64,000 bases of DNA from Vicinamibacterales bacterium (GCA_965222905.1 OZ244976.1:7376488-7440487), one strand, 5' to 3'. Positions 67-38,260 are shown, counted from the stretch's first letter. Made by a program: numbers and translations. Notes: generated by a model not told the origin, from the letters alone.

Positions 67-2153
67 CCCAAGTTTAACAGCCGCAGTACTAAGCAACGCG
101 GAATCAGCAACTTACAGCGACAAAAGCGCTCGAGTGGCACTACAAACCTGCGCAAACCGGGAAATGGGTCGGTCAGATGGTTGTCTTGCGGACGCCTCCC
201 GGTTGCGGGTCGACGCCGAGCGCGTCGTAGATGGCCCGCTGTTCGGGTTCGGCCTGCGTGGCGGTGCGCACGTGCAGGGTGCGCCCGTCGGGGCGCCGGA
301 AGGTGGCGGTGACGCGCTGCTGGCCTTCGAGGATGCGGCGCAGGGTGGTCCAACTGGCGTGTTCGCCGTGGGCTCGCAGCCGGGTGCGGATGACCTGCAC
401 GAGCTGGTAGGCGATGACGGTGATGAACAGGTGGCCATCGGCCCGCTGCGGCTTGTGGTGGTAGATGGGGCGCAGGCCGAGTTCGGACTTCAGTGCGCGG
501 AAGACGGCTTCGACGTCGGTGAGGGTGGTGTAGGTGCGCCACAAGGCGTCTTCGTCCCAGTCGGTCTCGCTGCTGCGCAGGCAGTAGACGCCCGGATGGG
601 TGGCCATCGAGCCGTCCTGGGGGCGACGGGTCCAGGTGACGGCGGCGGCCTTCTCGCCGGTCTGGTCGGGGGTGACCTCGATCTGGTAGTGCTTGGCGAC
701 GCGGGTATGCTTGGCTCTCAGTCGCCCAATGCGCTGCCAGACCTGTCCGAGGCGCTTGTGGGCGCGGGGGCGCGCCAGCCCCTCGTTGAGCGTGGTCAGC
801 GCGGCCTCGAAGCGGGCGGCGGCCCGCTCAACGATGGCCCGCTCCTTGTGGGCCCGCTCTTCGGAGTAGCAGTACAGGCGGACCTCGCCGGGGTCGGTCG
901 AGACGACCTTGTGCAGATGCACGGTGTGGTTCGACTGCGTGCGGACCGCCACGGCGGCCTCGGCGTCGAACTGCCGGTGGCGTTCACGGCTGACGACCAG
1001 ATAGCGGTAGCGGTTGTCGCGCAGCCACCCGATGGCGGCCTCGGTGGCGACGCCGCGGTCCATCACCACCAGGGCGCCGGCCGGCGCATCGAGTGCCTCC
1101 AGCATGCCGGCCAGGGTGCGGTGTTCCCGGACGTTGCCGGCGAAGACCTGCGAGCGGCGCACGAAGCCGCTGGCGTCGAGCATCAGGCCCAGGGTCAGCA
1201 GCGGACAGTCGCTGCGCTTCTCTTTCGAGTGCCCGCGCTTTGCCTGCGGCTGCGCGCCCGCCTCGCCTTCGAAATAGGTGTTGGTCAGGTCGTAGAGGGT
1301 CACCGTCGGCTGCAGGTCGAACAGTCCCATGGCCCGCTCGAACAGATGCGCCTCGATCGCCTCGCGGTGCTTCACCAGCGCATCCGAGGCGCGGTAGAGC
1401 TGCATCGGGCTGACGGTCTCGAAGTCGACGCCGAGCAACTCGCCGAGGCCGCTGCGTTCCTGCAGCCAGCGGTGCGTGGCGCGCTCCGAGGCCGGCTGGG
1501 CCAGGCGTCCGACGACGGCGCCGGTCGCCGCGGTGCGCAACGCGCCGTTGACGCCCAACTCGGTCAGCAGGGCCGGCAGGCCCAATTGCTCCAGGGCCCA
1601 CAGGCCGACCTGCTCGACGCCGACGCTGCGGGGGCGGACCAGGCGCAACGAGTCGACGTCGACCGGCTGCACGTCTGTCGGCCCGGCTGCTTGTCCCTGC
1701 ACCGGTGTGCCGCGGGCGACCAACTGTGCGGCTATGCGCTGCGCTTCGCGTTCGACGGCGGCCGGGCAATCGGCCACCAGGGGCGTCTGGCCGGCCAGGA
1801 TGTCGTCGCTGCGGGAGCAGACCAGCGGCCATTGCGCCTGGGGAATGTCGAAGTGGCGTCCGAGATTGAGCAGGGTGCGCTGGCGGACGGCGTTGCCGAT
1901 GCGCTCGGAGTGGACGAGGCGATGCGAGAAGTAGGGCTGTCCGTCGGCGGTCCGCCGGGTTTGGGTGCGGCGAATGAACACACGCCCACGATAGCGGGTG
2001 CACGTCCCCAGAAGCAACAACCACTCACACGATTATGGCACTACATTCAGTACCGCCAACACCCGATCCTTTAGAATCAACAAGTTATGGGGATGCGATC
2101 CTCGGAATATCGCCTAAATCTACAAAATTGTCTGGAATCTTGCTAAAGATGGG
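67..2153 (-). mobile_element. IS1634-family insertion sequence
   Basis: Ends CCCAAGTTTAACA and CCCATCTTTAGCA (reverse complement). Flanking direct repeat (G)CTAT(C) of 4-6 bp, depending on where the ends are placed. Confidence 0.9.
173..1981 (-). CDS. IS1634-family DDE transposase
   Basis: VFIRRT N-terminus, LYDLTNTYFEG, GHSKEKRSDC, VVMDRG and LKSELGLRPIYHH motifs. Probable GTG start at 1981. Confidence 0.92.
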   Translation of the reverse strand: MFIRRTQTRRTADGQPYFSHRLVHSERIGNAVRQRTLLNLGRHFDIPQAQWPLVCSRSDDILAGQTPLVADCPAAVEREAQRIAAQLVARGTPVQGQAAGPTDVQPVDVDSLRLVRPRSVGVEQVGLWALEQLGLPALLTELGVNGALRTAATGAVVGRLAQPASERATHRWLQERSGLGELLGVDFETVSPMQLYRASDALVKHREAIEAHLFERAMGLFDLQPTVTLYDLTNTYFEGEAGAQPQAKRGHSKEKRSDCPLLTLGLMLDASGFVRRSQVFAGNVREHRTLAGMLEALDAPAGALVVMDRGVATEAAIGWLRDNRYRYLVVSRERHRQFDAEAAVAVRTQSNHTVHLHKVVSTDPGEVRLYCYSEERAHKERAIVERAAARFEAALTTLNEGLARPRAHKRLGQVWQRIGRLRAKHTRVAKHYQIEVTPDQTGEKAAAVTWTRRPQDGSMATHPGVYCLRSSETDWDEDALWRTYTTLTDVEAVFRALKSELGLRPIYHHKPQRADGHLFITVIAYQLVQVIRTRLRAHGEHASWTTLRRILEGQQRVTATFRRPDGRTLHVRTATQAEPEQRAIYDALGVDPQPGGVRKTTI

Positions 2154-3367
2154 CTATCGCACCTCGCCGTACAAGGACCGCATCGACCGGATCGGCCAGC
2201 GCCTGGTCGAGCAGCGGTATCACCCCGAGGTCACGGAGCAGCATCTGCGGGAGTGGCTTCGGGTGACCGACTATCTCCGCGAGCAGGGGCTCAGACTCCC
2301 ACTCACCTTCACGGCCCCGGAGGTCGAGCAGTATGTGGCGGACCGAGTCGTCGAGCTCAGCGCCAGTCGAACGCGCTTCGTCCGGGCGGCCGTTCGGATC
2401 TTTCTGGACGCCGACGAGCACGGATACTTCCTCGTCGCATCGGGCGGGTACCGCAACCAGTGCCGTCGTGGTTCGGGTCGGCTCTGGGTGAGTACACCGA
2501 GTCCCTGTACTCCCATCGCGGGTTGGCTGCGCGCACGGTCGGCAAGCGCGTGTGGCAGCTCACCCGCTTCGCGGTGTATCTCGACCAGGACGGGGTGACG
2601 CGGCTCGACGCCATCGCGCCGCGTCACATTCACGAGTTCCTGATCCGCTTGCGGACACAGGCCGTCGCCACGCGCCTGACCTACGTGACGACACTGCGCA
2701 GCTTCTTCCGGTGGGCTGCGATGACAGGGTCGCTTCCCCGCGACCTCAGTGCGGCGGTGGCGCCGCCCCGTCAGTTCAAGCAGCGTGGCCTGCGGGATGC
2801 CCTCACCGAGCGCGAGGTGACCCGCCTTTTGAATGGCGTGGACCGCGCGTCGCCCATCGGCCGTCGTGACTATGCCGTCTTGCTGCTCGCGGCCCGGTAC
2901 GGCCTGCGTCCGTGCAACCTCCGGCAACTCCGCCTCGATGCCATCGACTGGCGGGAGCACGTGCTGTCGCTCACCCAGGCCAAGACCGGCCGCATCCTCA
3001 CCCTGCCGCTGCTCCCCGACGTCGCTGACGCCCTGATCGCCTACCTCCGGCACGGCCGGCCGGCGACCCAGTCGCGATATGTGTTTGTTCGGCACAAGGC
3101 TCCGTTCGAGCCATTCGTGGCCACGAACAACCTGGCCACGATCATGCGGCAGGCCCTGCAGCGCGTGGGGCTCGATCAGCGGGAAGGACGCCGCGGGCTC
3201 TACTTGCTGCGCCACACCTTGGCGTGTCGGATGCTGGCCAGCGGCAGTCCGCTCAAGCGCATCGGAGATGTCCTTGGGCATGCGTCCACCGGCGCCACCA
3301 TGGAGTACGCCTCTGTCGACCTGACGGCCCTTCGACGCGTGGCGATCACCGAAGCGGATGTGCGTCC

Positions 3368-4375
3368 ATGACGGCGGGAACGGCCGGGCCGCACTCGACG
3401 TGGTCGTCTCCGCTGGCCGCTGCGCTGCAGCGGTTTCTCGATGGCAAACGAGCCGCGGGGTATCGCTACCGCGCCGAAGCCCAGGCGCTGGGCGCACTCG
3501 ACCTTTTCCTCAGCAAGGCCCTCTCGCCGGCCGACCCCGTGATCACCAGCGACATCGTGCGTGCCTTCGTGGCCCGGCGCGGGGCCGAGTCGGAGACCAC
3601 GCGTGTGCATCGGCTGACGCTTATCCGGGAGGTGTGTCGCTTCCTCGCACTCGATGACCCGCGGACGTTTGTGCCGGCGCCACGATTCCTCGGCATCCAC
3701 CGCCGCACCAACGTGCCGCGTGTCCTCTCGCTTGATGAAGGCCGCCGGTTTCTCGACGCCTGCGACACCTTGGACCGGCGCCGCAGCTCGCCCTGCCGCG
3801 ACCTCGTCCTCCGGACGTTGCTGGTCCTGCTCTATCTCACGGGGTTGCGTGCCGGAGAAGCCCTTCGCCTCACCCTGGCGGACGTCGATCTGGAGACGGC
3901 AGTGCTCCGCATTTGCGACACCAAGTTCGGCAAGTCACGGCTCGTGCCCCTCGCCGCCGACGTCGCAGCTCGACTCGCGCAGTGTCGGGACACTCTCACG
4001 GACGAGCTCGGCGAGCGGACACCGGGCGAGCCGTTCTTCCCAGCGCCCTCCGGCCAGCCGTACTCGATCTCGGCCCTGCGTGACGTCTTCCACGCGGTCC
4101 TGGCCGCAGCGGGGATTCCCCGCTGGCAGGGAGGGAGATCCTTGCGGCTGCACGACCTGAGACACTCGTTTGCAGTTCTCCGCCTGACACTGTGGTATCG
4201 ACAGCAGGCCCCGCTCGGGAACCTCCTGCCGGCGCTGGCCACCTACCTCGGGCACGTGGACATCGCCAGCTCACAACGCTACCTCCAGATGACCGAAGAC
4301 GTCGTCGCCGACTTCACGCACCGTTACGCGGCGCGGTTCGGGCATCTTCTCTCCGAGGACGGAGGGCCGCGGTGA
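3368..4375 (+). CDS. RIT element 1 second tyrosine recombinase (RitB-like)
   Basis: ATGA overlap with the upstream gene. LYLTGLRAGEAL, KFGKSR and LHDLRHSFA...YLGH motifs. Confidence 0.9.
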   Translation: MTAGTAGPHSTWSSPLAAALQRFLDGKRAAGYRYRAEAQALGALDLFLSKALSPADPVITSDIVRAFVARRGAESETTRVHRLTLIREVCRFLALDDPRTFVPAPRFLGIHRRTNVPRVLSLDEGRRFLDACDTLDRRRSSPCRDLVLRTLLVLLYLTGLRAGEALRLTLADVDLETAVLRICDTKFGKSRLVPLAADVAARLAQCRDTLTDELGERTPGEPFFPAPSGQPYSISALRDVFHAVLAAAGIPRWQGGRSLRLHDLRHSFAVLRLTLWYRQQAPLGNLLPALATYLGHVDIASSQRYLQMTEDVVADFTHRYAARFGHLLSEDGGPR

Positions 4376-8769: not shown

Positions 8770-9131
8770 CGGGAACGATGTCTACGGTAGCGACGAGTCT
8801 TGGGCCCGGGGCAGTCTCTGGAGACACATGGCCCAATCGTCCACCAGACGCCGCCGCCGCTCGAACAGGTCCGACCGCGCGTAGGCAGCCTCCACCTTGT
8901 TCTGGATCACGTGGGCGAGCGCGGCTCGATGACTTCGCGCGGATGGTCCGTTTCCTCGGCGGCCCAATCCGGAACGACGACCGGAAGCCGTGCGGCACGG
9001 CGGAGAGCTCGTGGTGCTGGAGCATCTGCGGGAACGTCGACGTGGCTATCGACCTCCCGCTCCGCATCGGGAACACGAGCCGGTTGCCGTCGCCGAGCGT
9101 CCGCGCCGCATCGAGGATCTCCAGCGCCCGG
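8770..9131 (-). pseudogene. P4-like phage integrase C-terminal remnant (frameshifted)
   Basis: RALEILDAAR..., VPHGFRSSFR, ALAHVIQNKVEAAYARSDLFERRRRLVDDW spread across shifted frames. Confidence 0.8.
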
Positions 9132-10587
9132 GGGATTGTCCCGTTCGTTGTTGAACTTCGGGTGACGGACTCCCGGTCTCCTCTACGTAGTCATCTATAT
9201 TACGCCACGTCAGCAACCATGCCGTCGGGCGGAGCCAGCGCGTCCAGGGCAACGACCAGGTGCTGCAGATCACGGTAGCCCCGGACCCGCCGGAAGCGCT
9301 TCTCCGCCTCCACCAGCGCGCTCGCCACCCAGCGTTGAATCATCTGACCACCGCGCCAGCGCTTGACGTTGCGCGAGTAGTGCTCGACGCTGCCGTTGAG
9401 GTTCTCGATGATGTTCGTCGTCCGCAGGGTACGCTGCAGCGCACCCGTCAGACCGAGGCGCTGCACGGTCAGCGTCTCGTCGAGTCCTTCCCGGATGGAG
9501 GCCGCTGCCCCGGGGTGCTCGCGCTCGAGCGACTTGGCCAGCCGCTCGAGCACCCGCGCCGCACGGTCCGCCGAATCGAGGTCCCACGCATCCCGCAACG
9601 CCTTGCCGACAGAGGCGTGCAGCCGCTCGGGCAGATGGCCGATGACGTTCCTCCACTTATGGACTTGGCAGCGTTGCACCACGCCGCGAGAACCGAAGAC
9701 GTCGGTGATGGCCCGGCGCAGCCCCGCAGCGCCATCGATGACGAACAGCAACGTCCGGTCCGTCGGCAGTCCGCGCGCCACCAGGTCGCTCAACAGGCCG
9801 GTGGTGACAGCAGCGGTCTCGGTGGCGCCTTCGCGCAGCCCCAGCACGTGTTTCCGGCCCTGGGTGTCGATCCCCAGCGCGATCACCATGCAGTGGTCCC
9901 GGAAGACCTTGCCGTCGATGCAGACCACCCGCAGGTCCAGTTCCCCCAACGGCCGGCCGAGAAACGCCTGGAGGCGCTTGGTCGACAGCGCCACGAACCG
10001 CCGCGACACGGCGCTGCTCGATGTCGCCCGCTCGGTCACGTCGGCCGGCACCGGGTCCAGCGTGCCCGCATACCGGCGTGTCGACACCCCGGCGGCGACC
10101 GCGGCCAGCGTATGCTCGTCCAGCGGGTCGGTGGCCGCCGCCCATTGGAAGCTCGCCAGCGGGACTTCGCCCTCGGCGCTCCGCACCCGCTGCCGTGGCA
10201 GCTCGACCTGCCGTCCGCCGAGCGTCACCTGGCTGTCGACACTCCCGCCGCGCCACGCGGGCCGCTCAACCTGATGGCGCCCCTTCGGGCCACACAGCAT
10301 TTCCCGGTCCGCCTCCATCATCGCCTCCAGGACCTGCAGACCGGTCGCAATGCACAAGCCATGGAATGCTTCCCGGACACCGTTGACCACGCCGAGGACC
10401 GGCAGCGGCACCTGGATCGTGACGGGGCGCGAGCTGGGGGGTTGGCCGGACGTCTTCCGCCTGTCATGCTTCGCCATGGGTGGCAGTCTCCTTTTTTGAT
10501 TGCATCCCCTGTCCTACCACAGGACAGGGGCAGGAGCTGCCACCCGCTTCATCTCAGTTCAAGTTCAACAGCGTTCGGGACATCCCC
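9132..10587 (-). mobile_element. IS256-family insertion sequence
   Basis: Imperfect TIRs GGGATTGTCCCGTTCGTTGTTGAACTT and AAGTTCAACAGCGTTCGGGACATCCCC. GCGCCCGG is duplicated at 9124-9131 and 10588-10595. Confidence 0.9.
9200..10477 (-). CDS. IS256-family transposase
   Basis: AGVSTRRY, VCIDG, LFVIDGAAGL, QRCQVHKWRN and LRTTNIIENLN motifs. Confidence 0.92.
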   Translation of the reverse strand: MAKHDRRKTSGQPPSSRPVTIQVPLPVLGVVNGVREAFHGLCIATGLQVLEAMMEADREMLCGPKGRHQVERPAWRGGSVDSQVTLGGRQVELPRQRVRSAEGEVPLASFQWAAATDPLDEHTLAAVAAGVSTRRYAGTLDPVPADVTERATSSSAVSRRFVALSTKRLQAFLGRPLGELDLRVVCIDGKVFRDHCMVIALGIDTQGRKHVLGLREGATETAAVTTGLLSDLVARGLPTDRTLLFVIDGAAGLRRAITDVFGSRGVVQRCQVHKWRNVIGHLPERLHASVGKALRDAWDLDSADRAARVLERLAKSLEREHPGAAASIREGLDETLTVQRLGLTGALQRTLRTTNIIENLNGSVEHYSRNVKRWRGGQMIQRWVASALVEAEKRFRRVRGYRDLQHLVVALDALAPPDGMVADVA

Positions 10588-10619
10588 GCGCCCGGCCGCA
10601 GAGGTGGTGTGTCCCAGAA

Positions 10620-11744
10620 GGGTGCGGCTCTTCTTCGTCGGCGGCCGAATCAGTCTCTGCGGCAGCGAGGCAGGAGGCAATTGGATCCGTCACGGCGTGG
10701 TGAGGGAGCAGCGGAGGGGACCGGTGGCCGATGGTACTTGTGCGGTCAGCGACGGCTGGGGGTGTTCCGCTGGTACTCGCGCGCTTGGTGGAGGGTCTCA
10801 GTACGCATCAATGCGCCGGCGGCCCGTGGCGGCTTGAGGACCGTCGCAACTGCAGCCAAGTGTCACCGTGCGCCGGTCGACTACCATCCGGTCGCGGGCC
10901 AAATGCCGACAGGCCTTCAATGAGCTGGGCGACGAGCACCGCACGCCGCATCGCCGCTGCCACGTGGATAATGTCGAGTACCACTGTGGCTTCCAGGGCG
11001 TACGCGGTGGTGCCCGCGAAGCGGTCGCGATGGTCACGCGGCGGCGCATATCGACCAAGGAGCGCTCCGGCAGCAGGTTCAGCGCGGCATCGAGCGGATG
11101 CAGGCCGTCGTGACCGCGCCGCGCGCAGCCCAGACCCACAACCGGCATCGTGCCGGAGGTCGTTTCGGCGTGGCTATCCTGCTCGCGCCGCGCCGAGCAC
11201 TCGACACCACTGGCGTCCTCGGCCGGACCGGCAGCCTGTCCCGGGCTGCGTTGGTCGTGATGTCCTTGCAGGAGCTTGCGTACCAACTTCTGGCCCCGCC
11301 GGTGCAGTTCCCGTTCGAGTTCGCTCTCGCTCATCTGCCGGGCTTCGTTGGAGGAGAGGAAGGCTTTGGCATCCGCGAAGACAGCATCGGCCGCTGCGCA
11401 CGGGGCCGGGCTCGGGAGATCGATGCGAGGGACGCCGGTTCGCGCCTCTGGCACGTCGAATCTACGTCCCTGGAATCCTGTCGTCACAGCCATCACAGGT
11501 CTGTCCCCCCCCTGCCCATGGAACCGTACCAGAACGCCGCGCGAATGTCCAGAAGGGAGCGCGCCCGAGGGGGACAGACCGACGGTATTCGGTACCGTTT
11601 CGAGGCTCGGCTGGCCGCCGGAAAGACGCGGGTACGTGCTGGCTTGGTTGCTGTCCCCCCGAACTGAGCACTGGAGAGACGCATCCGCGGGCAAAAAGGC
11701 CCATGAATAGGGCGAAAACTTCTCTACGAAGAAGAGCCGCACCC
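10620..11744 (-). mobile_element. Non-autonomous, internally deleted ISKra4-like element, copy 1 (1125 bp)
   Basis: Perfect 19-bp TIR GGGTGCGGCTCTTCTTCGT. 9-bp TSD GTCCCAGAA at 10611-10619 and 11745-11753. Transposase relics include SESELERELHRRGQKLVRKLLQGH, LHPLDAALNL and VVLDIIHV. Confidence 0.85.
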
Positions 11745-11865: not shown

Positions 11866-12876
11866 CTAGCCGCTCGACCGGGCCGACGCGCGAGAGAGCG
11901 CGTAGCCACACTTCTGGCAACTTACCAGCCCCTGCACGAGGCTCGGTTCGATCGTGCGCCGCCGGGCGTGCACCTTGTTCTCGTGCAGCAGTTCCTGTGC
12001 GCGCGCGAAAGTCGACTCGTCCACGATCGCCGGCACCGGGATCTCGATCCATTCCTCGCGCGGCCGTTCGTGGTTCGCACTGTCGCGACTGGCGGCGCCG
12101 CCGCGCAGCCGTAGTGGGCGCGTCAAGCGCTGCCGTTGGGCTCGTTGCGTCTTGCCGAAACACGCCGTGCCGCGATAGGCCGGGTTGCGCAGCATCGCCC
12201 ATACGGTGGAGCGTTCCCAACGGGTGCCGACCTTCCGCGTGGGCACGCCTTGCTCGTTGAGCCAGCGGGTGATCGCCGCGATACTCCAGCCCGTGACGGT
12301 GTAGTGCTCGTAGACGTCGCGGACAACGCGCGCTTCGGCGTCGATGACGACGTACGCCGCGGGGTTGTCCTCACGCTTGCGAATGTAGCGATAACCATAG
12401 GGAGCGCCGCCCAGGACACTGATCTCACCGGCTCGCGCGCGGTGCCGCTTGCCACGACGCGACCGTTCGAGGATCTGAGCGCGTTCGTACTCGGCGATCA
12501 TGCCCTGAAACTGCACCAGCAGCTGATCCTCGGCCGTGGCGCTCGACGGAGCATTGAGGAAGCGGGCTTCGACCCCCTGGCGGGCGAACTCTTCGATCAA
12601 CAGCACCTGGTAGGCGTACTTCCGACTCAGCCGATCCGGACTGTGCACGAGCACCACCTGGATGTCGCCGGCGGCTGCGAGGTCGCGCACCTGTTCCAAT
12701 CCCGGCCGTTCGAGAGTCGCCCCGCTATAGCCTTCGTCTTCGAAGATCCATTGCTGGGGCGCCTCCAGATCGAGCGTCGCGGCCCAATCGACCAGCGCCG
12801 CCGTCTGGCTCGCGATCGTGTGCGCTTCGCGCTGCTGGTTCGAGGACACGCGCGTGTAAATCGCCGCCATCTGCAT
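11866..12876 (-). pseudogene. Large serine recombinase LSR2, truncated just after the first CxxC of the Zn ribbon
   Basis: AAIYTRVSS catalytic motif, EDEGYSGATLERPGL, DRLSR, recombinase domain GAPYGY and LRNPAYRG. Ends GLVSCQKCG...SSG*. Confidence 0.9.
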
Positions 12877-13027
12877 GTGGACGCTCCATTCCATAAGCTG
12901 CAACCGGACGCATACGGGCCGGCACCAACAACGTGTACGCCTGGGCGATCTTGCTGTCGCGAAGTCGATCGAACGTGCAATCGAGCTGCACCTGCCGGGG
13001 AGCACTTCGTGGTTGTCGTTCACCCAC
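12725..13027 (-). CDS. Small hypothetical accessory protein overlapping the LSR2 start
   Basis: Translationally coupled between the HTH gene and LSR2. RQVQLDCTFDRLRDSKIAQAYTLLVP motif. Confidence 0.5.
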   Translation of the reverse strand: MGERQPRSAPRQVQLDCTFDRLRDSKIAQAYTLLVPARMRPVAAYGMERPHADGGDLHARVLEPAARSAHDREPDGGAGRLGRDARSGGAPAMDLRRRRL

Positions 13028-13352
13028 GTCGCTGACGGAAGGTGTCCAGGAACGCCGTCACCGCCTGGGTGACGACTTGTCCGAGGGAGAGTCCGCTCTC
13101 GCGGGCATAGGCGCGGATTGCGCGTACGGTGCTGACCGGCAGCTTGAAGGTGATCGCGACGGTCGGCTCGACCGCCGGCAGCGGAGCGCTCAGCCCGGCT
13201 GCTTCCTGGAGATAGCGGTAGGCTTGCCGGCGGGACAATGCAAACTCGCGACCGAGATGGCGGGCCGCCTCGGCGCGTTCCATCTGCTGCCCGAGCAGCC
13301 GGTACGCGGCGTTGAGCAAGCGCGCCTTGTCGGCCTTGGTGGCCCGCGCCAT
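13020..13352 (-). CDS. Small DNA-binding protein (HTH plus ribbon-helix-helix-like)
   Basis: AARHLGREFALSRRQAYRYLQEA helix-turn-helix, followed by ITFKLPVSTVRAIRAYARESGLSLGQVV. Confidence 0.7.
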   Translation of the reverse strand: MARATKADKARLLNAAYRLLGQQMERAEAARHLGREFALSRRQAYRYLQEAAGLSAPLPAVEPTVAITFKLPVSTVRAIRAYARESGLSLGQVVTQAVTAFLDTFRQRRG

Positions 13353-13461
13353 GAGTCATACACATATTACCTCTTGAGACGCAAGTCAAGTACCGGTCGG
13401 TCTCGCCAGCCGGTGATCACCCGATCGAACTGAAAGTTGCCTTTTGCGTTCGGGGAGTAGC

Positions 13462-13812
13462 GACGCCCCCTTGGGGCGTTCCCATCGTGCGCGGCACCAG
13501 GGTTCCGTCTTCCTGCTGCATGGGAGCGGTCAGCCACCGCTGCACATAGAGCAGAATCCACCGGCACCGGGTGTACTTCCTGACCGCACGCATGACGAGC
13601 GCGTGGTCCAGGTTGTCAAAGAAGCCGCGGATATCCAGATCGATCACCCAGTCATAACGCCAGCATCGCTGCCGGGCTGTCGTGAGTGCGTCGATCGCGG
13701 ACTTCCGCGGGCGATACCCATACGAATCGGGATGGAACTGCGGCTCCACGTCCGGTTCCAGGTACATCTTGACCACCGTCTGGGCAATTCTGTCAGCGAC
13801 AGTGGGGACGCC
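13462..13812 (-). pseudogene. Class D group II intron RT, middle fragment (RT2-RT4)
   Basis: GVPTVADRIAQTVVK...DSYGYRPRKSA...RCWRYDWVIDLDIRGFFDN...RWLTAP...GTPQGGV, RmInt1-like. Confidence 0.9.
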
Positions 13813-13864
13813 GGCTTCATAATGCACCTCCTGCAGCACGGCTTCGGGATTCTCGTGCGACCGT

Positions 13865-16552
13865 TCAAATTCTCGAGGAGTTTCGGACCCAGGCGCGCAA
13901 TGTCTCCTTTTTGTCGTCGTCGAAGGCGATCCAGTACGGCGAGCCGTGGTTAGGACAGTGCCCTAAACTAGTTTGCCACATGCCAGTTTCCTGGTCATAC
14001 TGGAGGTATGAAGCGAGATATCGAGCTGGAAGCGACCCTGGTTGCGAAGTATGCCGTGGTCGCGCCGGTGTTGGACGAGCGCAGTCGCCGCCGGTGGGCG
14101 GCGGCCGAGTCGCTCGCTGTCGGCTACGGCGGCGACGCGGTGGTTTCGTCGGCCACCGGTCTGGCTCGGGAGACGATTCGCAAGGGACGCCGGGAGATTG
14201 CCCCCGACGAGGCGCCCACCGACCGCATCCGACGCCCTGGAGGCGGACGGCTCCGCATCCAGCAGGATCAACCCGGCATCCAGGCCGCGCTCGAAGCGCT
14301 GGTGGACCCGCTCACGCGCGGCGACCCGACCTCGCCGCTACGCTGGACGTGCAAGAGTCGCGCGAAGCTGGCGGGGGCGCTCGTCGACCGCATCGGGAAC
14401 GTCCGGACGGCGACCGGGCTCCGGGTCCTGGCCGAACTCGACGCCGGGCAGTATCCTACGGGCGTCACGGTGACCAAGGAACAGATGGACGCACTCGCGC
14501 TGGTTCCCGATGCGTTTCACGGGGAATGGAATTACAAACTGTTACCCCGATGAAGTTGACAACTTTATATCGATCACTGTCCTAGGTCGTCGAGCCGTGA
14601 CTACGCCGCGGTCGATCCAGTAGTAGACCACATTGCGGCTGACGCCGAGTTCGTCGGCGACCTGACGGACGCTGCGCTCGCCGGGGCGCTTGAAGTCGGG
14701 AGCCGGAATCCGGTGCTTGTGGCGGATCCAACGGACCATCGAGACGTTGAATGCCCCGCCTTTGGCGCTCCGGCGACCCTCCCGGTTCAGCGCTGCTGCG
14801 ACCTGCTCGTCGGAGCGCTCGCGAGCCAGCTCGCGCACCCGGTCGACGACCTCGTCGGGATACCGGAGGCGATCGGCAATGTTGGCGGGCAGCGTAACCT
14901 CGAGGTCTTCGCAGGCCCCACCCTGCCACCGGACATGCAAGATGGCGGTCTTGCGTTCGCCGAACCGCTCGACGGTGATGTCCTTGATCACGAGCCGGAG
15001 GATGCGCTTCTTGTCCTTCGCCTTGGTCGTGGGCGCGTTCCACAGGCGGGGGAAGTCGTGGGCGAGCGCCGCCACCCGGGCGCGCTGCTCCGGCGTGACC
15101 ACGAGCGCTTCCTTGCTCTGAAAGTCAGCAAACTGCGTCCTGACCTCTTCGAGCCGCACCAGGGCGTCGTTCCAGCGCTGCTCGAGCGTCGCGGCCACGA
15201 GGCGATTCGACGGATCGACCTCCTCGTAGCGGCGCTGGGCCAACTGCGCTTCGTACTCGGCTCGTTCCAGGCGCATGCGCCATTGGCCGGACATCGCCTT
15301 GTCCCGGTGTTTCGAGCTGCCGTAGCGCTTCCTCGGCGACCTCGAGCTCGGCAGGTTCGAGCACCGCCAGCATCCGCTCCGAGACCGCGGTGTCCAGCAG
15401 GTCGCAACGCAGGCTCATGCAGCTGGTGGTCGCCACTCCTTCGCGCCGCCGCGCGTTGCATTCGTAGGTCGGGTAGATGCCGCCGTTGCCCTTGTAGCGG
15501 ACGGTCAGTCGGCGACCGCAGCGCCCGCACAGCAGCAGGCCTTGGAGCAGTGCGAGTCCTTCCCGCGCGGCGCCGCTCAAGAGCATGTGCTCGGCATTGG
15601 TACGGTTGTTCTCGAGCAGCTGCTGGTTCCGCTCGTACTCCGGCCAGGAGACGTAGCCGTCGTGGTGATTCTGGATCCGCACGAGCCAGGCGTCCAGCGG
15701 GACGCAGCGCGTGCGCATGCGGACGTCGCCTTCGGGGGAAACCTCCTTCGTGCTCTGGTGACGCCCGAAGACATACGCCCCGGCATACGTGGGGTTCTTG
15801 AGAATGTCGAGCACGCGGTTGTGGTTCAGCCGACCCCAGATGAGTCTGCCGTCCCACGCCCCGCCGTAGGCGCGCTTCGGGAACCGCAGTTGCTGTCGGC
15901 CGAAGTGGTGCACGACCGCGTAGGCGCTGCCCGTCTGGCGGAAGACCTCGAAGACCAGCCGGACAGCGCCCTGGACCTCCTGGTCCGGATCGAGCACGAT
16001 GCGCCCCTCGTCGGCGTAGCACAGGCCGATCGGCAACGGGAAGCGGAGCTCACCCTTCTGGGCCTTGTGGAGCTTGCCGCCCTGGAGGCGCGCGCGAATG
16101 ACGTGCAGCTCGGCCTGGGCGATGGTGGCCTTGAGGCCCAACAGCAGCGCGTCGTTGAAGTCCGCCGGGTCGTAGCAGCCGTCCTCGTCGATGACCAGCG
16201 TCCGGGTCAGCGCGCAGATCTCGATCAACCGATGCCATTCCAGGTTCGAGCGGGCCAACCGTGAGGCTTCCAGGGCGAAGATCGCGCCGACGCGGCCCAG
16301 CGACACATCGGCGACCAGCGTCTTGAAGTCCTCGCGGTTGGTCGTCTGCGCCCCCGACTGCCCGAGGTCCTGGTCGAGGATCCGGATTCGCTCCGGCGCC
16401 CACATCATCTCGACGGCCCGGTTCCGCAGGTCGTACTGCCGCTCGGTACTCTCCTGGTGATGGCGCACCTGCCCCATCGTCGACTGCCGGATATAGATGT
16501 AGGCCGGCTTCTGCAGGTGGTGGCTCTGTACTTTCGACATCGTCAGCACCAC
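13865..16552 (-). pseudogene. Large serine recombinase LSR1 with C-terminal HTH extension; frameshift near 15310 and mini-IS insertion at 13953-14582
   Basis: AYIYIRQST catalytic motif, DQDLGQSG, LEASRLAR, LLCGRCGRRL Zn ribbon. Removing the mini-IS joins ...TARRP to NHGSPYWI...NSSRI*. Confidence 0.88.
13953..14582 (+). mobile_element. Internally deleted ISAzo13-family element (630 bp)
   Basis: TIR GGACAGTG/CACTGTCC with a TA duplication. ORF 14008-14553 fuses the ISAzo13 N-terminus (LDERSRRRWAAAES, RGDPTSPLRWTCKS) in frame to the C-terminus (YPTGVTV, FHGEWNY). Confidence 0.85.
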
Positions 16553-16703
16553 CCTCGATCAGTTCCTGACGGGTGTGGGACGGAAGCGCGTGCCCGCTCG
16601 TCGCAGCGGCCGCGCGCTCGGAAGCGATCCAGCACTGCAGCATGTTCGCGGTCAACAGGCCGGCGGTCTGGACATCGACGGGCACGGCGGCCGCCATCTG
16701 CAT

Positions 16704-17048
16704 TCAGTCGATCGGCTCCCGACGTCGCAGCAGCTCGAGGTTGATCGCGGCGATCTCGTCGAGGAGCTGTCGCGTCCGGCGGTAGTTGGCGACGAACTGC
16801 TCGACCTGGCTGCGATGCTCCTGCGGCACGTAGACCATGACCGGTCGCGCCTTCGGCATGCTGACCGACAGGTAGACCTTCGGACCGTGGCCGATACCGC
16901 GCGCGCACTTGCACCCTGGTCGTCCGCAGCGCTTGAAGCGTTCGATGAGCGAGCCGCGCAGGATGGCCTTCAGGGACGGGAGCTGCCGCAGCAGCATTGT
17001 CCGGCGCCTCCGTAACGTACTCGCCAAGCGTGTTTTCAGACCAGTCAT
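16704..17048 (-). CDS. DUF6788-like small protein (CGRPGCKC motif)
   Basis: LRGSLIERFKRCGRPGCKCARGIGHGP.VYLSVS pattern, located upstream of LSR1. Confidence 0.75.
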   Translation of the reverse strand: MTGLKTRLASTLRRRRTMLLRQLPSLKAILRGSLIERFKRCGRPGCKCARGIGHGPKVYLSVSMPKARPVMVYVPQEHRSQVEQFVANYRRTRQLLDEIAAINLELLRRREPID

Positions 17049-17078
17049 ACAACTGGTCTGATACTACACCTCTCGACC

Positions 17079-17385
17079 TCATTTGGGAAGCCCTCGGTCG
17101 TCGGCCTGCTCCAAGGCCGCCAACAGCTCGGTCAGCGCGATGAGCTTCACGAAATCGAGGACATGAGCGCCGCTCGCAAGATCCGCCGCCGCGGCCGGAA
17201 CCTCTCGATCCGTCCACTCGCGGGGCACGCAGAACGTACCTCCGGAGGTGCCCTGCAGAATGAGCGTGTCGATGCCGGAGACGCGGCGCGTCTTCAGGAT
17301 CGGAAACCGCCGACCCCGGAGTGGATGAAACGGGTGGGTGATCTCAGTCCACCCCGACGGCTCGTTGGGGCGATGTGCAGTTCGC
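17079..17385 (-). CDS. DUF5372-like small protein; start uncertain at the element boundary
   Basis: ITHPFHPLRGRRF...VPREWTD motif. No clear start codon inside the element. Confidence 0.6.
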
Positions 17386-17388
17386 GAT

Positions 17389-18191
17389 GACCGTGGGAAT
17401 GCCCAAGCGTCGCTCACTTCCGTCCTTCTTCGGTATCCCAACCGACCGGACCGGAGGCGGGAAGTACGTGCCCGACGACATCCGATTCCAAATCTTATAG
17501 AGATTGTTCTTCAGGTCCTGCTCGAACATCTCGACAGACTCAGCATCGACGCCAGCTGCTCCGTGGTTCGCCTTGACCCGAGTGTAGGCCTCCCAAACCA
17601 CCCACTTGGAAATATTGAACGGCTTCGCGTGGCTCGACGGCTCCTCCCGCGCGCGCGGTTGACCGTCGGGACACGCTGGATGACGCGACCCCTTTGCTCC
17701 ATCGAGTTTCCCCGACTTCATCGCTCGTACGGGTCGCTCCGCCCCTGTGCCTCGCATCGGGCTTCTCATCCTTGGGGGTCGGCCCCTTGGATTTCTCCCT
17801 TCACATCGAGGCGACAGGTTCCCACGTTCCACACAAGGGCCTGGTGCAGGGTCACGCCACCTTTATGCCGGGTGCCGCCCAGCCAAGCTGCAGGCTCCCG
17901 CTGGACTTGTCCCGGGTTAACGACTCGCCCCGGTTTCGACACCGTCCCTACGCTTTCGACACGTTGCCGGTGGTTCATACACTTCGTCTCCCTGCACCCT
18001 ACCTGACGCGGTCAAGCCGCGCCGTTTCCGTGACGCTTACCACCTCGGCTCTTGACCGAGGCAGCGCACGACGGTTTGAAGCCTCCCCCTGCCGGGCGGC
18101 TCCGAGGGGCCTACCCTCATCCCTCATGCAGCATGGCTGCAGCTAGTCTAGGTGGCCATCTCGGCCTCCTTTCCGCGCCTTCGTGGCGCAC
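17389..18191 (-). mobile_element. Class D group II intron, 5' part (ribozyme 5' domains plus RT N-terminus); 3' end not found
   Basis: Starts with GTGCG at 18191. RT reads KPFNISKWVVWEAYTRVKANHGAAGVD...NLYKIWNRMSSGTYFPPPV...RRLGIPTV. EBS1/EBS2 match the 5' exon. Confidence 0.88.
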
Positions 18192-20597
18192 AATCATCGG
18201 CGTAGCGCACGATGATTGCGTCGCCTGTGACCTCGTGGCTGCGCCATTTCTTCTGGAACCATAGGTCGAGGACGTAGTGCAGGTAGATGTTCGCCAGGAC
18301 TGGTGAAACCACCGAGCCTTGGGGAGTTCCCCGCAGATTGTCCCGCCACTCGCCAGCTTCCATGACGCCGGCGTTCAACCACTTGATGATGAGCCTGATG
18401 ACCCGCTTGTCCCCGATACGGTGCTCGAGGAACCGGACCATCCAGTCCCGCGAGACGTTATCGAAGAATGCGCGGATGTCGCAGTCCGCCACCCAGTTGA
18501 TCTTCCGCCGTGTCAGTCCGACCGCGAGCGCGTCGAGCGCGTCATGCGCCCCGCGCCCGCGCCGGAATCCGTAGCTGAACCCCAGGAACTCCGCCTCGTA
18601 TATCGGCGTCAGGATGGTCTCCGTCACCGCCTTCTGGACTATCTTGTCTTCGATGGCCGCGACGCCGAGCGGTCGTGTGCCGCCATCCGGCTTCGGAATG
18701 TTCACCCGCCGTGATGGCGTCGCCCGGTACGCTCCCGAGTGCACGCGGTCGTGCAGGTCGGCCAGCCGGCCTTCCAGCCCTTCCTCGTACATCCGCCACG
18801 TCATGCCGTCCGCGCCGGCCGCTGCATCCCTCTTCAGCTCGAAGAACGCTTGGCGCAACGCATCGACCGTGACATGGTGGAGAAGCGCCGTCAGACGCTC
18901 CTGTGGCTCCCGGCGTACGAATTGCCGTATCCGGTCGGCCGCCTGTGACGCGCTTTCCCGGCGCTGCGTCCGGCGCGCGCTTTGGCTTTCCGGATTCCCC
19001 TTGGGCTCGGTCCTGGGCTCCATTGGCTCCGCAGGGACCGGAGTCCCCTTGTTCGCCAACTTCACAGCTACTACGACCGAGTCTGATTTGGGTGCGGCTC
19101 TTCTTCGTAGAGGAGTTTTCGCCCTATTCATGGGCCTTTTTGCCCGCGGATGCGTCTCTCCAGTGCTCATTTCGGGGGGACAGCAACCAAGCCAGCGCGT
19201 ACCCGCGTCTTTCCGGCGGCCAGCCGAGCCTCGAAACGGTACCGAATACCGTCGGTCTGTCCCCCTCGGGCGCGCTCCCTTCTGGACATTCGCGCGGCGT
19301 TCTGGTACGGTTCCATGGGCAGGGGGACAGACCTGTGATGGCTGTGACGACAGGATTCCAGGGACGTAGATTCGACGTGCCAGAGGCGCGAACCGGCGTC
19401 CCTCGCATCGATCTCCCGAGCCCGGCCCCGTGCGCAGCGGCCGATGCTGTCTTCGCGGATGCCAAAGCCTTCCTCTCCTCCAACGAAGCCCGGCAGATGA
19501 GCGAGAGCGAACTCGAACGGGAACTGCACCGGCGGGGCCAGAAGTTGGTACGCAAGCTCCTGCAAGGACATCACGACCAACGCAGCCCGGGACAGGCTGC
19601 CGGTCCGGCCGAGGACGCCAGTGGTGTCGAGTGCTCGGCGCGGCGCGAGCAGGATAGCCACGCCGAAACGACCTCCGGCACGATGCCGGTTGTGGGTCTG
19701 GGCTGCGCGCGGCGCGGTCACGACGGCCTGCATCCGCTCGATGCCGCGCTGAACCTGCTGCCGGAGCGCTCCTTGGTCGATATGCGCCGCCGCGTGACCA
19801 TCGCGACCGCTTCGCGGGCACCACCGCGTACGCCCTGGAAGCCACAGTGGTACTCGACATTATCCACGTGGCAGCGGCGATGCGGCGTGCGGTGCTCGTC
19901 GCCCAGCTCATTGAAGGCCTGTCGGCATTTGGCCCGCGACCGGATGGTAGTCGACCGGCGCACGGTGACACTTGGCTGCAGTTGCGACGGTCCTCAAGCC
20001 GCCACGGGCCGCCGGCGCATTGATGCGTACTGAGACCCTCCACCAAGCGCGCGAGTACCAGCGGAACACCCCCAGCCGTCGCTGACCGCACAAGTACCAT
20101 CGGCCACCGGTCCCCTCCGCTGCTCCCTCACCACGCCGTGACGGATCCAATTGCCTCCTGCCTCGCTGCCGCAGAGACTGATTCGGCCGCCGACGAAGAA
20201 GAGCCGCACCCGTCTGATTTCTCCATGCCGTTCATCTTTGGTTACGGATTCCTCCTTTCCTCAGCGACCCCGCCCACGACAGCGGGATGGCATGGAGACC
20301 TCCCAGGTCCCGGTTCAGCGCGTACGTGCGTGCCTGGGTTCTTCGACACCGCGGGATTCCGGCCCCCCTCGCCATATCGGTGGGACGGATGCTGCCTTCG
20401 GTTTCCGGCGAAGACCTCGGCATCCCGGACGGAAATTTCTTTCGGTGCTCAATAGCCCTGCCCGCACGCGCCCCTGTCAACGCTTGACCCCCGCCCTCGC
20501 GGACGGTGGCCCATGACTCGGGGTGGAAGTGGTGGCTCACCTTCTCCTTCCTGCCGGACTCTCACCGGCTACGCTGACACCAGTTAGCCTGGCGCAC
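18192..20597 (-). mobile_element. Class E-like group II intron, 5' part; RT truncated right after YADD
   Basis: GTGCG at 20597. EBS1 CGCCGG (20405-20410) pairs with IBS1 CCGGCG. RT reads RLTALLHHV...YIPK-like NIPKPDG.TRPLG..EDKIVQ, GTPQGSVVSP, RYADD. Class assignment is by motif resemblance. Confidence 0.85.
19090..20211 (+). mobile_element. Non-autonomous ISKra4-like element, copy 2 (1122 bp), inside the class E intron RNA
   Basis: Same 19-bp TIR as copy 1. 9-bp TSD GTCTGATTT at 19081-19089 and 20212-20220. Near-identical to 10620-11744 in inverted orientation. Confidence 0.88.
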
Positions 20598-28952: not shown

Positions 28953-30001
28953 TTCCCCCGCCGTTCCTTAAGCCTTTTGACCACCGGCTTGTGACCCTTC
29001 ATGATGGTCAGGGATTGCCATATGGCCTTCCACCACGGGATCGGAGATCCGTACGGATAGCCGTTGGCCTCACAGTACTTCCTAACCACTAAAGAGATCG
29101 CCGGATAGTGGACGTGACTGATGAATGGGAACAGGTGATGTTCGATCTGATAATCTACCCCTGAGCACACAAACCGTCCAATGGGCCCGGTTTTGAAATT
29201 GATCGTGTTCATAGTTTGGATCAGGACGAAGTCCGCGTGCTTCAAATCGCACGCGAATGCCTGCGCGGCCGCGGGGAAATGCGCCGGCGCGAAAGCAATG
29301 AACATCGCGTAGCCCATCAATACGATGCGCACGACGTACAAGCACAACACGTCTACGGGATGAAAAAAAACCATTGGTATTATCAGCCACGTCACGACAT
29401 GCAACAACATCACCACCAAGTCCCACCAGTGATCTGCGGTGCGCGTCCCCGAGTCAAACAGATAAGAAAAAAGGTAACGCCAGCTCGCGCCTTGGACATT
29501 GAAGCCGTTGGCCGCCAGGGCAAAAGGAAAGAAAAGCCACTGGACGTCGTACCAGCGTTTTCGCCAACCCCTCGCGGCTTCGTACTGGTCTACGGTGAGA
29601 GCAAAGAATGGACTCAGATCCACGTCCGCGTCGGCGCCTACTACATTAGGAACCGGATGATGGATAACGTTGTGCTTGTGACGCCAGTACGTGGCCGACA
29701 GCATCAACATGAATGGATAGCCGAAGTACGTCAGCACGCTGTTGACGCGACGACTATCACTGGTCGCGCCGTGGGCCGACGTATGGGTATTGGTCGCCAC
29801 CCCCAGTAGTCCAAACGTGGAAATGAACAGCGCCACGCCCGCCAGCAACCAAGAATCGGCAACTACGAACACGACGAGCCCCCCCAGGGTGTTGGCAACG
29901 TGCAGCGCCAGTTCGACCATAATCCGAACTGGCGTCTTCTTGGTTAGACCCATTTTGTTCAGCTCGAGGCCTAAGTCGTGAATAGTCGATGCTGGAGACA
30001 A
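28949..30001 (-). CDS. Membrane fatty-acid desaturase (front-end type His boxes)
   Basis: HTSAH, HNVIHH and QIEHH boxes, hydrophobic segments, GGAGGT RBS with TTG start. Confidence 0.9.
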   Translation of the reverse strand: MSPASTIHDLGLELNKMGLTKKTPVRIMVELALHVANTLGGLVVFVVADSWLLAGVALFISTFGLLGVATNTHTSAHGATSDSRRVNSVLTYFGYPFMLMLSATYWRHKHNVIHHPVPNVVGADADVDLSPFFALTVDQYEAARGWRKRWYDVQWLFFPFALAANGFNVQGASWRYLFSYLFDSGTRTADHWWDLVVMLLHVVTWLIIPMVFFHPVDVLCLYVVRIVLMGYAMFIAFAPAHFPAAAQAFACDLKHADFVLIQTMNTINFKTGPIGRFVCSGVDYQIEHHLFPFISHVHYPAISLVVRKYCEANGYPYGSPIPWWKAIWQSLTIMKGHKPVVKRLKERRGK

Positions 30002-30020
30002 AGCTTACCTCCCAAGCACT

Positions 30021-31217: not shown

Positions 31218-31328
31218 GCGGCCTAGATCCTTGGTCGGTCAAGGGTCGCAGGTCAAGCGGGCAAGCCGTCGGTGTGCGATCCTCCGGATAGCCGGGGCGC
31301 TCGGGACCATGACGATAGGACTCTAGCA

Positions 31329-37329: not shown

Positions 37330-38260
37330 TATACGGACTCCCAGTCCCTGCCCCGCTGGCGTGCGGGCAGGCCAGCACCTGCTGACCGCGGGCGGTGAAG
37401 ATGAGCTCGGCGTTCTCGGTCACCTGACCGGTGGCCCCGTCGATGCCGCTGACCACGTTCTGGGTGATGGTCGGGGTGGCCCACAGGAACTCGGCCGTGT
37501 CCCGGTCCAGGGTGTAGACGATGCCCGTCTTGCCGGGGATGCCGGTCAGCACCCGCCGCTCCTCCCCCGGCTGAATGCGCGGGTTGATCCAGCTCACCGC
37601 CGCCGCGTTCGGGCGGACCGCCGTGTCGACCAGGAGCCGTTCGAAGGGATGGTCCAGGTCCCAGTGGTCGTTCATGTGCTGGTAGTGCCACACGATTTCG
37701 CCGGTGTCCCCGTTCAGAGCCAGCGTCGAGTTGTGGTACAGGTGCGTCAGGTCGGCCCCGCCCAGCATGAACTTGGGCGCCGGAGAGGTGACCGACGTGC
37801 CGACGTAGACCGGGTTCAGCTCCGGGTCGACGCTCGGCACCATCCACGAGCCGACGTGCCCGCGCTCCTCGAACGGCACGTCGCCCCAGGTCTCGTCGCC
37901 CGGCTCACCCGGCCCGGGGATCAGCCGCGTCCGCCAGAGCTCCTCGCCGGTCGCCGCGTCGTGCGCGGTGATGACGCAGCCGTGCGGTCCGCCGCGCGGG
38001 TCGCAGCTCCGGCCGGAGTACACCTTGCCGTTGGCGACGATCGGGCCCGAGGTCTGGTTGGCCGGGTTCACCGTGTAGTCGAGGATCTCCTTGTCCCACA
38101 CCACCTCCCCCGTCTCCGCGTCGAGGGCGACGATGTGGTCGTCCATGCTGGTATGGAAGATCAGCTCGCCGTGGGTCGCGATGTTCCGGTTGGTGTCGAT
38201 CAGGCTGCCGATCATGTAGTCGCCCAGATCGTCCGGGCCGTCCCGCGCCTTCCGGTACGT
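37330..38260 (-). pseudogene. PQQ-binding beta-propeller protein, internal fragment
   Basis: NRNIA, ALDAETGEVVW, TSGPIVANG, GSWMVPSVDPEL, HWDLDHPFE and GKTGIVYTLDR motifs. Both ends missing. Confidence 0.8.

Follow-up and report, generated by a model that had tools for sequence, protein, structure and literature searches.

Why does a reverse transcriptase (RT) gene in a 64,000-nucleotide stretch of a Vicinamibacterales bacterium (GCA_965222905.1 OZ244976.1:7376488-7440487; the whole stretch is hereafter called the window) break off at a conserved motif and resume only beyond a block of foreign genes? The initial annotation of this DNA attributed the split to a minimal integrative element that encodes a large serine recombinase (LSR) and has a conserved RT motif as its target attachment site (attB), and this proposal gains support from an empty site, 67 further loci and 46 in-frame targets. 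With a probability of about 0.88, the region as a whole is best explained as a decayed copy of an autonomous LSR element, the size of an insertion sequence (IS; 2.92-2.97 kb), that targets the RT genes of group II introns.

On the minus strand, the RT open reading frame (ORF) reads ...RRLGIPTV, with GIPTV at 17403..17389, and then runs into a few codons of foreign sequence, and the downstream RT piece opens with GVPTVADRIAQ at 13812; both breakpoints lie where they had first been placed. The N-terminal fragment, ending in ...RRLGIP, occupies 17396..17832 according to its translation, and the middle fragment, (P)TVADRIAQ...GTPQGGV, occupies 13460..13806, where it is recognized by the Pfam RVT_1 profile and is cut again at motif 4 by a second element. 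Between the RT halves, Pfam detects DUF5372, DUF6788 and an LSR with Resolvase, Recombinase and Zn_ribbon domains. The 15-mers at the two junctions, GGCATTCCCACGGTC and GGCGTCCCCACTGTC, are alike at 12 of 15 positions around CCCAC, as the initial annotation had it. An uninterrupted RT of the same lineage is present in a related Vicinamibacterales genome (L019 6700-7420) and shares 96.8% nucleotide identity with the N-terminal piece and 96.0% with the downstream piece. The two pieces map to positions 61-312 and 298-650 of this intact RT and overlap by exactly the 15-nt repeat; they therefore represent one gene split by insertion and, on this alignment, the junction repeat is not a chance resemblance. 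The intact site, CGCTTGGGCATTCCCACTGTCGCCGACAGA (RLGIPTVADR), reads GGC ATT CCC ACT GTC GCC GAC AGA and matches the frame-restored junction that had been predicted for the window except for one synonymous base. The attachment sites created by the insertion are also on the minus strand: attL (17375..17418, from the junction alignment over 83 loci) consists of the target arm ...CTTGGGCATT, the centre CC (17397-17396, the last bases of the N-terminal RT fragment) and the element arm CACGGTCATCGCGAACTGCAC, and attR (13785..13828, from junction comparison) of the element arm GTGCATTATGAAGCCGGCGTC, the centre CC (13806-13805) and the target arm CACTGTCGCTGACAGAATTGC. The gene belongs to a group II intron, here called intron B, whose 5′ ribozyme part (domains D1-D4) lies at 18001..18118 on the same strand (Rfam RF01999, group-II-D1D4-2, 108 bits). 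This is the only Rfam class reported for the host intron in the window, from which its RT tail and domains D5-D6 are absent.

The recombinase, LSR1, has a very large family. Counting relatives at E <= 1e-20, we found more than 8000 clusters of proteins of ~690 residues, mostly on contigs of ~3 kb, which is the signature of a multi-copy repeat. A separate scan of one genome per species yielded 481 loci in at least 10 phyla, the hosts including Acidobacteriota, Burkholderiaceae, Myxococcota, Planctomycetota, Nitrospirota, Bacteroidota, Spirochaetota, Melainabacteria and others; plasmid copies were seen in Cupriavidus, Burkholderia, Paraburkholderia and Caballeronia, and a search of IMG/VR for carriage by phages gave two partial matches only. 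Intact copies are carried by cultured strains, among them Paraburkholderia phymatum STM815 (pBPHY02), Cupriavidus necator SHC 2-3, Marinobacterium aestuarii and Burkholderia sp. OK233. To characterize the flanks, six-frame translations of 87 loci were scanned with RT-half and DUF profiles. An RT half directly adjoins the DUF5372 end in 67 of the 83 loci with a DUF5372 match, the LSR being antisense to the RT in 47 and in the same sense in 20, the window included, and the complementary RT half adjoins the opposite end of the element wherever that flank is available; the other 16 loci are mostly contigs that stop at the element boundary. These counts rest on 87 loci of this family and 80 of a second one described below, many of them close kin, and the orientation tallies are phylogenetically non-independent. 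Since homologues are flanked by RT halves split at motif 1, the objection that they might lie between unrelated genes, which the initial annotation had raised against itself, does not hold. Ribozyme domains D1-D4 were detected on the RT strand in 12 of 14 loci tested (Rfam classes 2, 3, 4 and 6), accompanied in six by D5-D6 (RF00029), and the C-terminal halves of the RTs carry GIIM domains. The element thus invades true group II introns, from several lineages, in which an RT/maturase ORF is placed between ribozyme domains. In L001-L003 and L006 (~2400-4200 and 8840-9600), the invaded intron itself splits Ser/Thr protein-kinase genes at several genomic sites, the N- and C-terminal halves of the kinase being annotated as separate genes on either side of it.

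The alignment of junctions gives the crossover position precisely. Read in the sense of the LSR, the left junction is flank-[CC or GG]-(G/C)ACGGTCA(G/T)CGCGAACTGCAC and the right junction is ...AGGAGGTGCATTATGAAR-YCACCGT(C)-[CC or GG]-flank, and in 63 of 66 loci the two junctions share their dinucleotide (GG/GG in 42, CC/CC in 18, and GT, TC and GC once each). Requiring the rebuilt RT to stay in frame places the crossover at a unique position, the first two bases (CC) of the invariant proline codon in RT motif 1, G-[IV]-P-[TASCV]-[VILMA]-x-D-R-x-x-Q. The crossover had been assigned to the CCCAC core of the repeat; it does fall inside this core, specifically at the CC dinucleotide of the proline codon and not anywhere in CCCAC. 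All 46 distinct targets that we reconstructed are in frame (46/46), and their DNA is conserved only at codon positions 1-2, giving the attB consensus CGnCCGnTnGGnATn-CC-nACnnTnnnGAyCG, in which symmetry is weak. The predicted attachment site of the free element (attP) is a 44-bp imperfect palindrome, GTGCA-N10-ACCGTC-NN-GACGGT-N10-TGCAC. The idea that attP mimics the target codons thus needs rewording: the resemblance is there, and it arises from the palindromic core ACCGTC-NN-GACGGT. Because the inner arms of attP are symmetric, polarity is set by the central dinucleotide only; such control of polarity by the centre is established behaviour of serine integrases. A CC centre goes with sense insertion and a GG centre with antisense insertion, and the sense lineages fall among antisense ones, with an LSR identity of 85-88%; therefore, the centre has flipped repeatedly. 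With its domain content, a 2-bp crossover shared by attL and attR, and distinct attP and attB sites that are imperfect inverted repeats, the element is, as far as these features can tell, mechanistically a serine-integrase element.

Comparison of copies indicates that the element moves by itself, in the pattern expected of an active site-specific transposon. Within a single assembly, the elements of L003 and L004 are identical at 2970 of 2970 positions and sit in two unrelated intron families. In composites of intron and element, the elements show 0 mismatches in 2950-2970 nt and the surrounding intron halves differ by 2-8% (L003 vs L002 and L006, L012 vs L013, L010 vs L011); for L003 vs L002, there are 38 and 97 mismatches in the two intron halves. 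Identical elements in diverged introns therefore point to recent, independent entry into intron copies that had already diverged. Gene conversion among copies is the only other plausible account of such identity. A rival reading is that the cassette spreads mainly as cargo of intron domain IV, retrohoming with an RT supplied in trans, and that its recombinase is a relic or has some other use. Composites do recur at several places in the genome, their homology extending roughly as far as the intron borders (L003 vs L001, L002 and L006; L011 vs L015). This mode of spread is nevertheless very unlikely to be the principal one: mismatch-free elements inside introns that differ by 2-8% and the identical element in an unrelated intron both require intron-independent movement or gene conversion, and the antisense copies, which are the majority, have nothing to gain from intron transcription. 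Of the initial annotation's suggestion of a hyperparasite that hitchhikes on introns, hyperparasitism is supported, and hitchhiking is not the main way in which the element spreads.

The autonomous element has a further peculiarity, since its own attachment site splits one of its genes. The body of the DUF5372 gene in the window (17079..17395, minus strand; Pfam PF17342, E = 1e-18) runs from codon 6 to stop, and frame analysis finds no start codon of its own with it within the element. In the family, the left end reads open in the DUF5372 frame from its very first base and has no conserved start codon; gene callers (PGAP and others) miss the gene or pick non-conserved starts, and it was called, for instance, in 0 of 6 loci, with few entries elsewhere. 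Every right end presents AGGAGGTG, 5 nt and an ATG, directly after the LSR stop codon or overlapping it. In the window, this right end (13807..13832, minus strand) comprises the Shine-Dalgarno sequence AGGAGGTG (13832-13825), the ATG (13820-13818) and the first DUF5372 codons (M K P A ...), and it also constitutes the P arm of attP. When the right end is joined to the left end through the centre, the start falls in the DUF5372 frame in all 66 loci (ATG in 64, GTG in one and a mutated ACG in one), yielding ORFs of 103-119 residues with an indel-free N-terminus, M-K-x-P-S-x-R-S-x-R-T-A..., in which attP falls within codons 5-7. Because the ribosome-binding site (RBS) and ATG lie at one end of the element and the gene body at the other, DUF5372 is complete only when the ends are joined, as in an excised circle or a tandem dimer, and the full-length protein would be made only from the excised circle. 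The GTGCA of the right end is mirrored in the left arm (TGCAC), these arms being probably bound by the recombinase, and GGAGG and ATG are unmirrored.

The Resolvase, Recombinase and Zn-ribbon domains of an LSR (PF00239, PF07508 and PF13408) were found in the window copy of LSR1 and in all 120 homologues listed, and LSR1 matches the PHROG 95 integrase with E = 4e-55. The family also has a long coiled-coil region and an additional C-terminal helix-turn-helix (HTH) of the excisionase/MerR type (residues 622-667 of protein P0006; equivalent to ~14560-14700 in the window), which is to our knowledge unusual among serine integrases. In DUF6788, the motif C-G-x2-G-C-x-C...G-H-G-P is invariant, and the C-terminal helix is long. 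In the same genomes, DUF6788 ORFs also occur immediately upstream of, and overlapping, genes for DDE-type transposases (Pfam DUF772, DDE_Tnp_1 and DDE_Tnp_1_6; L001 12675-13157, L002 371-853 and L006 10249-10584). The domain is therefore common to elements with quite different recombinases, which suggests a general transposition accessory. DUF5372 is modelled as a small SH3-like barrel with a helix. DUF5372 and DUF6788 are also found naturally fused in one protein, so a joint action is probable; the AlphaFold model of a fusion has a mean predicted local distance difference test score (pLDDT) of 76.5, and a Foldseek search with it against the PDB gave no match below E = 0.015, the weak ones being SH3-like barrels (PsaE, eS4). 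For DUF5372 and DUF6788, we found nothing in NCBIfam or PHROGs, only DUF names in Pfam, and nothing below E = 0.1 in profile searches of the PDB with the small proteins.

These comparisons, from which we read the target, the crossover position, both orientations, the recent independent movement and the empty site, suggest the following mechanism. The element encodes an LSR of ~690 residues together with DUF6788 and DUF5372, and the LSR would join the 44-bp quasi-palindromic attP to its target in the RT gene, cutting at the CC of the motif 1 proline codon (R-x-L-G-I-P-T/A-V/L-x-D-R-x-x-Q), so that CC lineages insert in the RT sense and GG lineages antisense. Insertion breaks the RT, and conservative excision, presumably through a circular intermediate, would restore it exactly. 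Integration also parts the RBS and ATG of DUF5372 at the right end from the gene body at the left end, and the predicted joint of the circle in GG copies is …AGGAGGTGCATTATGAARNCACCGTC-GG-GACGGTCANCGCGAACTGCAC…. More speculatively, the LSR alone may integrate, with DUF6788 modulating direction with or without DUF5372. A DUF5372 made only from the circle might serve as a state signal, in all likelihood jointly with DUF6788, that biases the free form to re-integration or stops further excision.

Serine-integrase prophages and islands are known in conserved genes, such as Bxb1 in groEL1, A118 in comK and SCCmec, moved by Ccr recombinases, in rlmH. Like them, the element has an LSR built from Resolvase, Recombinase and Zn-ribbon domains; its attP differs from its attB, polarity follows from the 2-bp crossover, and conservative excision is predicted to restore the gene. 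Unlike them, it is 2.9 kb long, without cargo, phage or transfer genes, and multi-copy as ISs are; its target is a site defined at the level of a protein motif in another mobile element, in many lineages and phyla, with both orientations common; and its LSR has the extra C-terminal excisionase-type HTH. New features are the habitat, which in different classes and phyla is a catalytic motif in the enzyme of a different mobile element; the combination of IS-like minimalism and abundance; the two-way insertion ruled by the centre; and the att-split gene. Membership of the SCC cassette recombinases (CcrA/B/C) was considered and rejected, with NCBIfam scores of 20-37 bits vs cut-offs of 700-900.

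The clostridial transposons Tn4451/Tn4453 (TnpX) and Tn5397 (TndX) are likewise small elements, moved by LSRs through an excised circle at whose joint a promoter is reportedly formed, so that in both cases the excised form, a predicted one here, changes expression of an element gene. Elements of that type carry resistance or conjugation cargo, use a GA dinucleotide and choose targets loosely, and their circle creates a promoter, whereas the present element has a CC/GG crossover and a single RT codon context and splits RBS and start from the gene body; cargo is absent from the family except for one extra ORF in Nostoc relatives. Placement of attP inside a coding sequence, so that integrated and free forms encode different products and the att site is a state switch, recalls mycobacteriophages with integration-dependent immunity, which are said to have attP inside the repressor gene. 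In these phages, mostly with tyrosine integrases, integration trims a 3′ degradation tag, whereas in the element it removes the 5′ RBS and ATG and should silence the gene. As a safe harbour in multi-copy, dispensable and horizontally travelling DNA, the target resembles those of IS1111-attC elements and group IIC-attC introns, which occupy integron attC sites, and of ISs nested in ISs. It differs in that the mechanism relies on an LSR and that insertion hits the catalytic core of the enzyme by which the victim itself moves, thereby disabling the victim. The IS607 family is likewise IS-sized and moved by a serine recombinase, but its TnpA is small, with an N-terminal HTH and almost no target specificity, and the domain architectures do not match. 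Membership of IS607 was rejected: LSR1 has no IS607 match, the recombinase of the second family (LSR2) scores 33 bits vs a cut-off of 110, and tnpB is absent.

The likeness to the skin element (SpoIVCA) in sigK and the fdxN element (XisF), in which an LSR-bearing insert splits an ORF that excision rebuilds, deserves separate consideration, since the initial annotation had also offered an excision switch of the skin or nif kind. On this explanation, the insert would be a domesticated intervening element, like skin in sigK or the fdxN/nifD elements, whose regulated excision lets the host or the intron turn the RT on. Excision would indeed restore the RT frame exactly, and the best NCBIfam match of the LSR is XisF, at a far sub-threshold score (80 bits vs a cut-off of 375). 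We nonetheless regard the switch as largely refuted already and highly improbable. Skin and fdxN elements occur as single copies that are inherited vertically, do not move and are linked to host differentiation, whereas the present family is mobile and promiscuous, and the gene it interrupts is that of a selfish element and is no part of a developmental pathway of the host. Genomes hold several copies, placed in different introns; both orientations are represented; the family spans at least 10 phyla and four intron classes, with copies frequently decayed and some off-target; and identical elements in diverged introns indicate recent spread, not vertical inheritance with a host gene. Assignment of the LSR to the XisF/SpoIVCA type was rejected on its score, its multiplicity and its retroelement target. 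Finally, a chance juxtaposition of unrelated RT fragments beside a recombinase cassette, or an assembly artefact, might be entertained in a neighbourhood patched together from nested and rearranged elements (an inverted repeat of 1.1 kb, the second element with its truncation, and remnants of ISs), but it is already refuted by the perfect abutment of the two fragments, from one lineage, on the intact homologue and by the recurrence of the architecture in independent assemblies, including finished genomes and plasmids.

Several observations weigh against an autonomous element that homes to RT genes, or against parts of the proposed mechanism. Integration and excision are known here from their products only (attL, attR and the empty attB), and neither a circular junction nor a tandem copy was found in 174 collected sequences or in IMG/VR, so excision is something that we infer rather than observe. 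Contigs of element length were considered as possible circles and ruled out, since their ends share only the 2-3 nt of the centre and they are products of repeat collapse. A few copies occupy non-RT or imperfect sites (L016, L057 and L069). Rare copies (L016, L057, L069 and the L077/L079 set) are outside the canonical RT site or show odd centres (GT/GT, TC/TC, GC/GC and GC/GG), and may be off-target events or post-insertion mutations; by eye, the flank of L016 (~1340-4300) resembles a gene for a RecD-type helicase. Distant relatives (~43% identity), such as y4bA-D of NGR234, have no RT flank, and neither do Mesorhizobium relatives; RT targeting is therefore not shared by the whole superfamily. 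That the ATG of DUF5372 stays in frame, at a constant spacing, could partly reflect recombinase-binding geometry, given the GTGCA mirrored by TGCAC. DUF5372 and DUF6788 lack detectable structural or sequence relatives, so the roles given to them are guesses, and the model has no account of how the LSR is expressed from the integrated state. Concerning the distant relatives, the rhizobial y4bA-y4bD module (L171, pNGR234a, 28990-32259) consists of DUF5372, an HTH protein, a small ORF and an LSR and, with no RT flank, presumably has another target. The Nostoc relatives (42% LSR identity; L170, plasmid pNPM3, 2980-6860) keep both the RT target and the split-gene right end and carry one extra ORF of 320 residues as cargo.

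The second element in the same RT gene belongs to an unrelated family, LSR2, which is very large and as abundant as that of LSR1. In the window it is 3′-truncated and occupies 11866..13459 on the minus strand, with the left terminal repeat ACTCCCCGAACGCAAAAGGCAACTT, a regulator-like ORF (13352..13020) and the LSR2 gene (~12876..11866), and it cuts the RT at GTPQGGV in motif 4 (TPQGG-x-|-SPLL, the bar marking the cut). A longer copy in L011 (6485-8715) is ~2.2 kb long and encodes a small regulator-like protein and an LSR of ~560 residues; L015 is its empty site in the same genome. The ends of LSR2 elements are perfect inverted repeats (ACTCCCCGAACGCAAAAGGTAACTT), and the centre corresponds to positions 1 and 2 of the codon that precedes S-P in motif 4, with GC, GT and AT seen. 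Among 80 metagenome loci (L088-L167), the flanks are again RT halves: 18 are sense, 16 antisense and 10 mixed, and the rest are without one or both flanks. The mixed loci (L098, L099, L111, L118, L119, L126, L141, L144, L148 and L166) are bordered on either side by one and the same RT half, the two pieces facing opposite ways (UP+/UP- or DN-/DN+), which suggests inversions between oppositely inserted copies or assembly chimeras at repeats. With both LSR1 and LSR2 in RT genes, group II intron RTs are exploited by at least two independent recombinase lineages.

A broader reading, which we put forward tentatively and regard as possible but not probable, is that these families form a guild of obligate DNA hyperparasites on group II introns. 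At least two unrelated LSR families would home to motif 1 ('IP') and motif 4 ('QG..SP') of the RT, reading a codon-degenerate protein signature instead of one fixed DNA sequence and sweeping through all susceptible introns of a genome, and the att-split ORF of LSR1 elements would be a sensor of the free or integrated state that sets direction. If this were true, the control logic would be one undescribed for serine integrases, the elements could be a significant natural brake on intron spread, and thousands of compact integrases would be available with known attP/attB pairs and candidate directionality factors. The LSR1 elements add a trophic level to bacterial mobile DNA, as abundant cross-phylum elements that live only in the catalytic core of another selfish element's enzyme. 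They make it possible to test whether parasites limit group II intron load, how an LSR recognizes a site conserved at codon positions 1-2 and how direction is controlled with an att-split gene. For practical purposes, attP, attB, crossover dinucleotide and polarity can be read directly from genomes for thousands of compact LSRs, and the uncharacterised DUF5372 and DUF6788 are candidate directionality factors. The family explains many 'pseudogenised' intron RTs as well as orphan annotations of DUF5372 ('Y4bD/Y4pK family'), DUF6788 and 'recombinase family protein'. It is apparently a very widespread and undescribed family: full-text searches of about 8.3 million openly available papers and preprints turned up no description of the element and no mention of either DUF5372 or DUF6788.

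The LSR1 element in the window is recently dead and inactive. It shares 98.5% nucleotide identity with the intact element of L011 over 17406-14583 and 100% over 13954-13805. The DUF6788 gene (16704..17048, minus strand; Pfam PF20586, E = 1.6e-28) encodes 114 residues with the conserved C-x4-C-x-C ... H motif of the alignment. The LSR1 gene, on the same strand, is in three parts. Its 5′ two-thirds, with the Resolvase, Recombinase and Zn-ribbon domains (Pfam), occupy 15295..16552, where one extra A at ~15312, recognized as a gap in the alignment with the intact copy of L011, causes a frameshift; the coiled-coil and C-terminal HTH part follows in the shifted frame at 14583..15294 (translation); and the last 29 codons and the stop (...SPYWIAFDDDKKETLRAWVRNSSRI before the stop) lie at 13865..13954, as identified by their identity to L011. 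The 3′ end of the gene is interrupted by a later insertion of 628 bp (13955..14582, plus strand), an internally deleted ISAzo13-family element recognized by Pfam PF07592 on the ORF 14008-14553 and by the break in the L011 alignment, with the terminal inverted repeats GGACAGTG / CACTGTCC and a 4-bp overlap at the break. This insertion had escaped the initial annotation, which was right about the three genes and wrong in taking them for the only content of the intervening DNA; because of it, the window copy measures 3.59 kb and not ~2.95 kb as intact members do (2.92-2.97 kb). With an LSR that is both frameshifted and interrupted, the copy is therefore immobile on its own. The 628-bp piece resembles a miniature inverted-repeat transposable element and encodes a transposase remnant of 181 residues in which N-terminal and C-terminal parts are fused.

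The locus is surrounded by a nest of intron fragments. A second group II intron, intron A, has its D1-D4 domains at 20337-20562 and an RT ORF that extends down to 18148; in the stretch 18148-18210, this ORF ends a few codons past the YADD motif, where the 5′ end of intron B starts, so that intron B seems to have been inserted into intron A's RT gene. Part of intron A forms a 1.1-kb inverted repeat, 99-100% identical, at 10615-11744 and 19090-20216, which suggests an inversion or rearrangement between intron copies, and the left copy of this repeat adjoins and truncates the LSR2 gene at ~11860. The intact RT of the intron B type in L019 likewise has a further RT fragment immediately upstream. 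Farther along the window, a direct repeat of 300 nt with 81% identity is present at 37365-37664 and 41812-42111, 4.4 kb apart.

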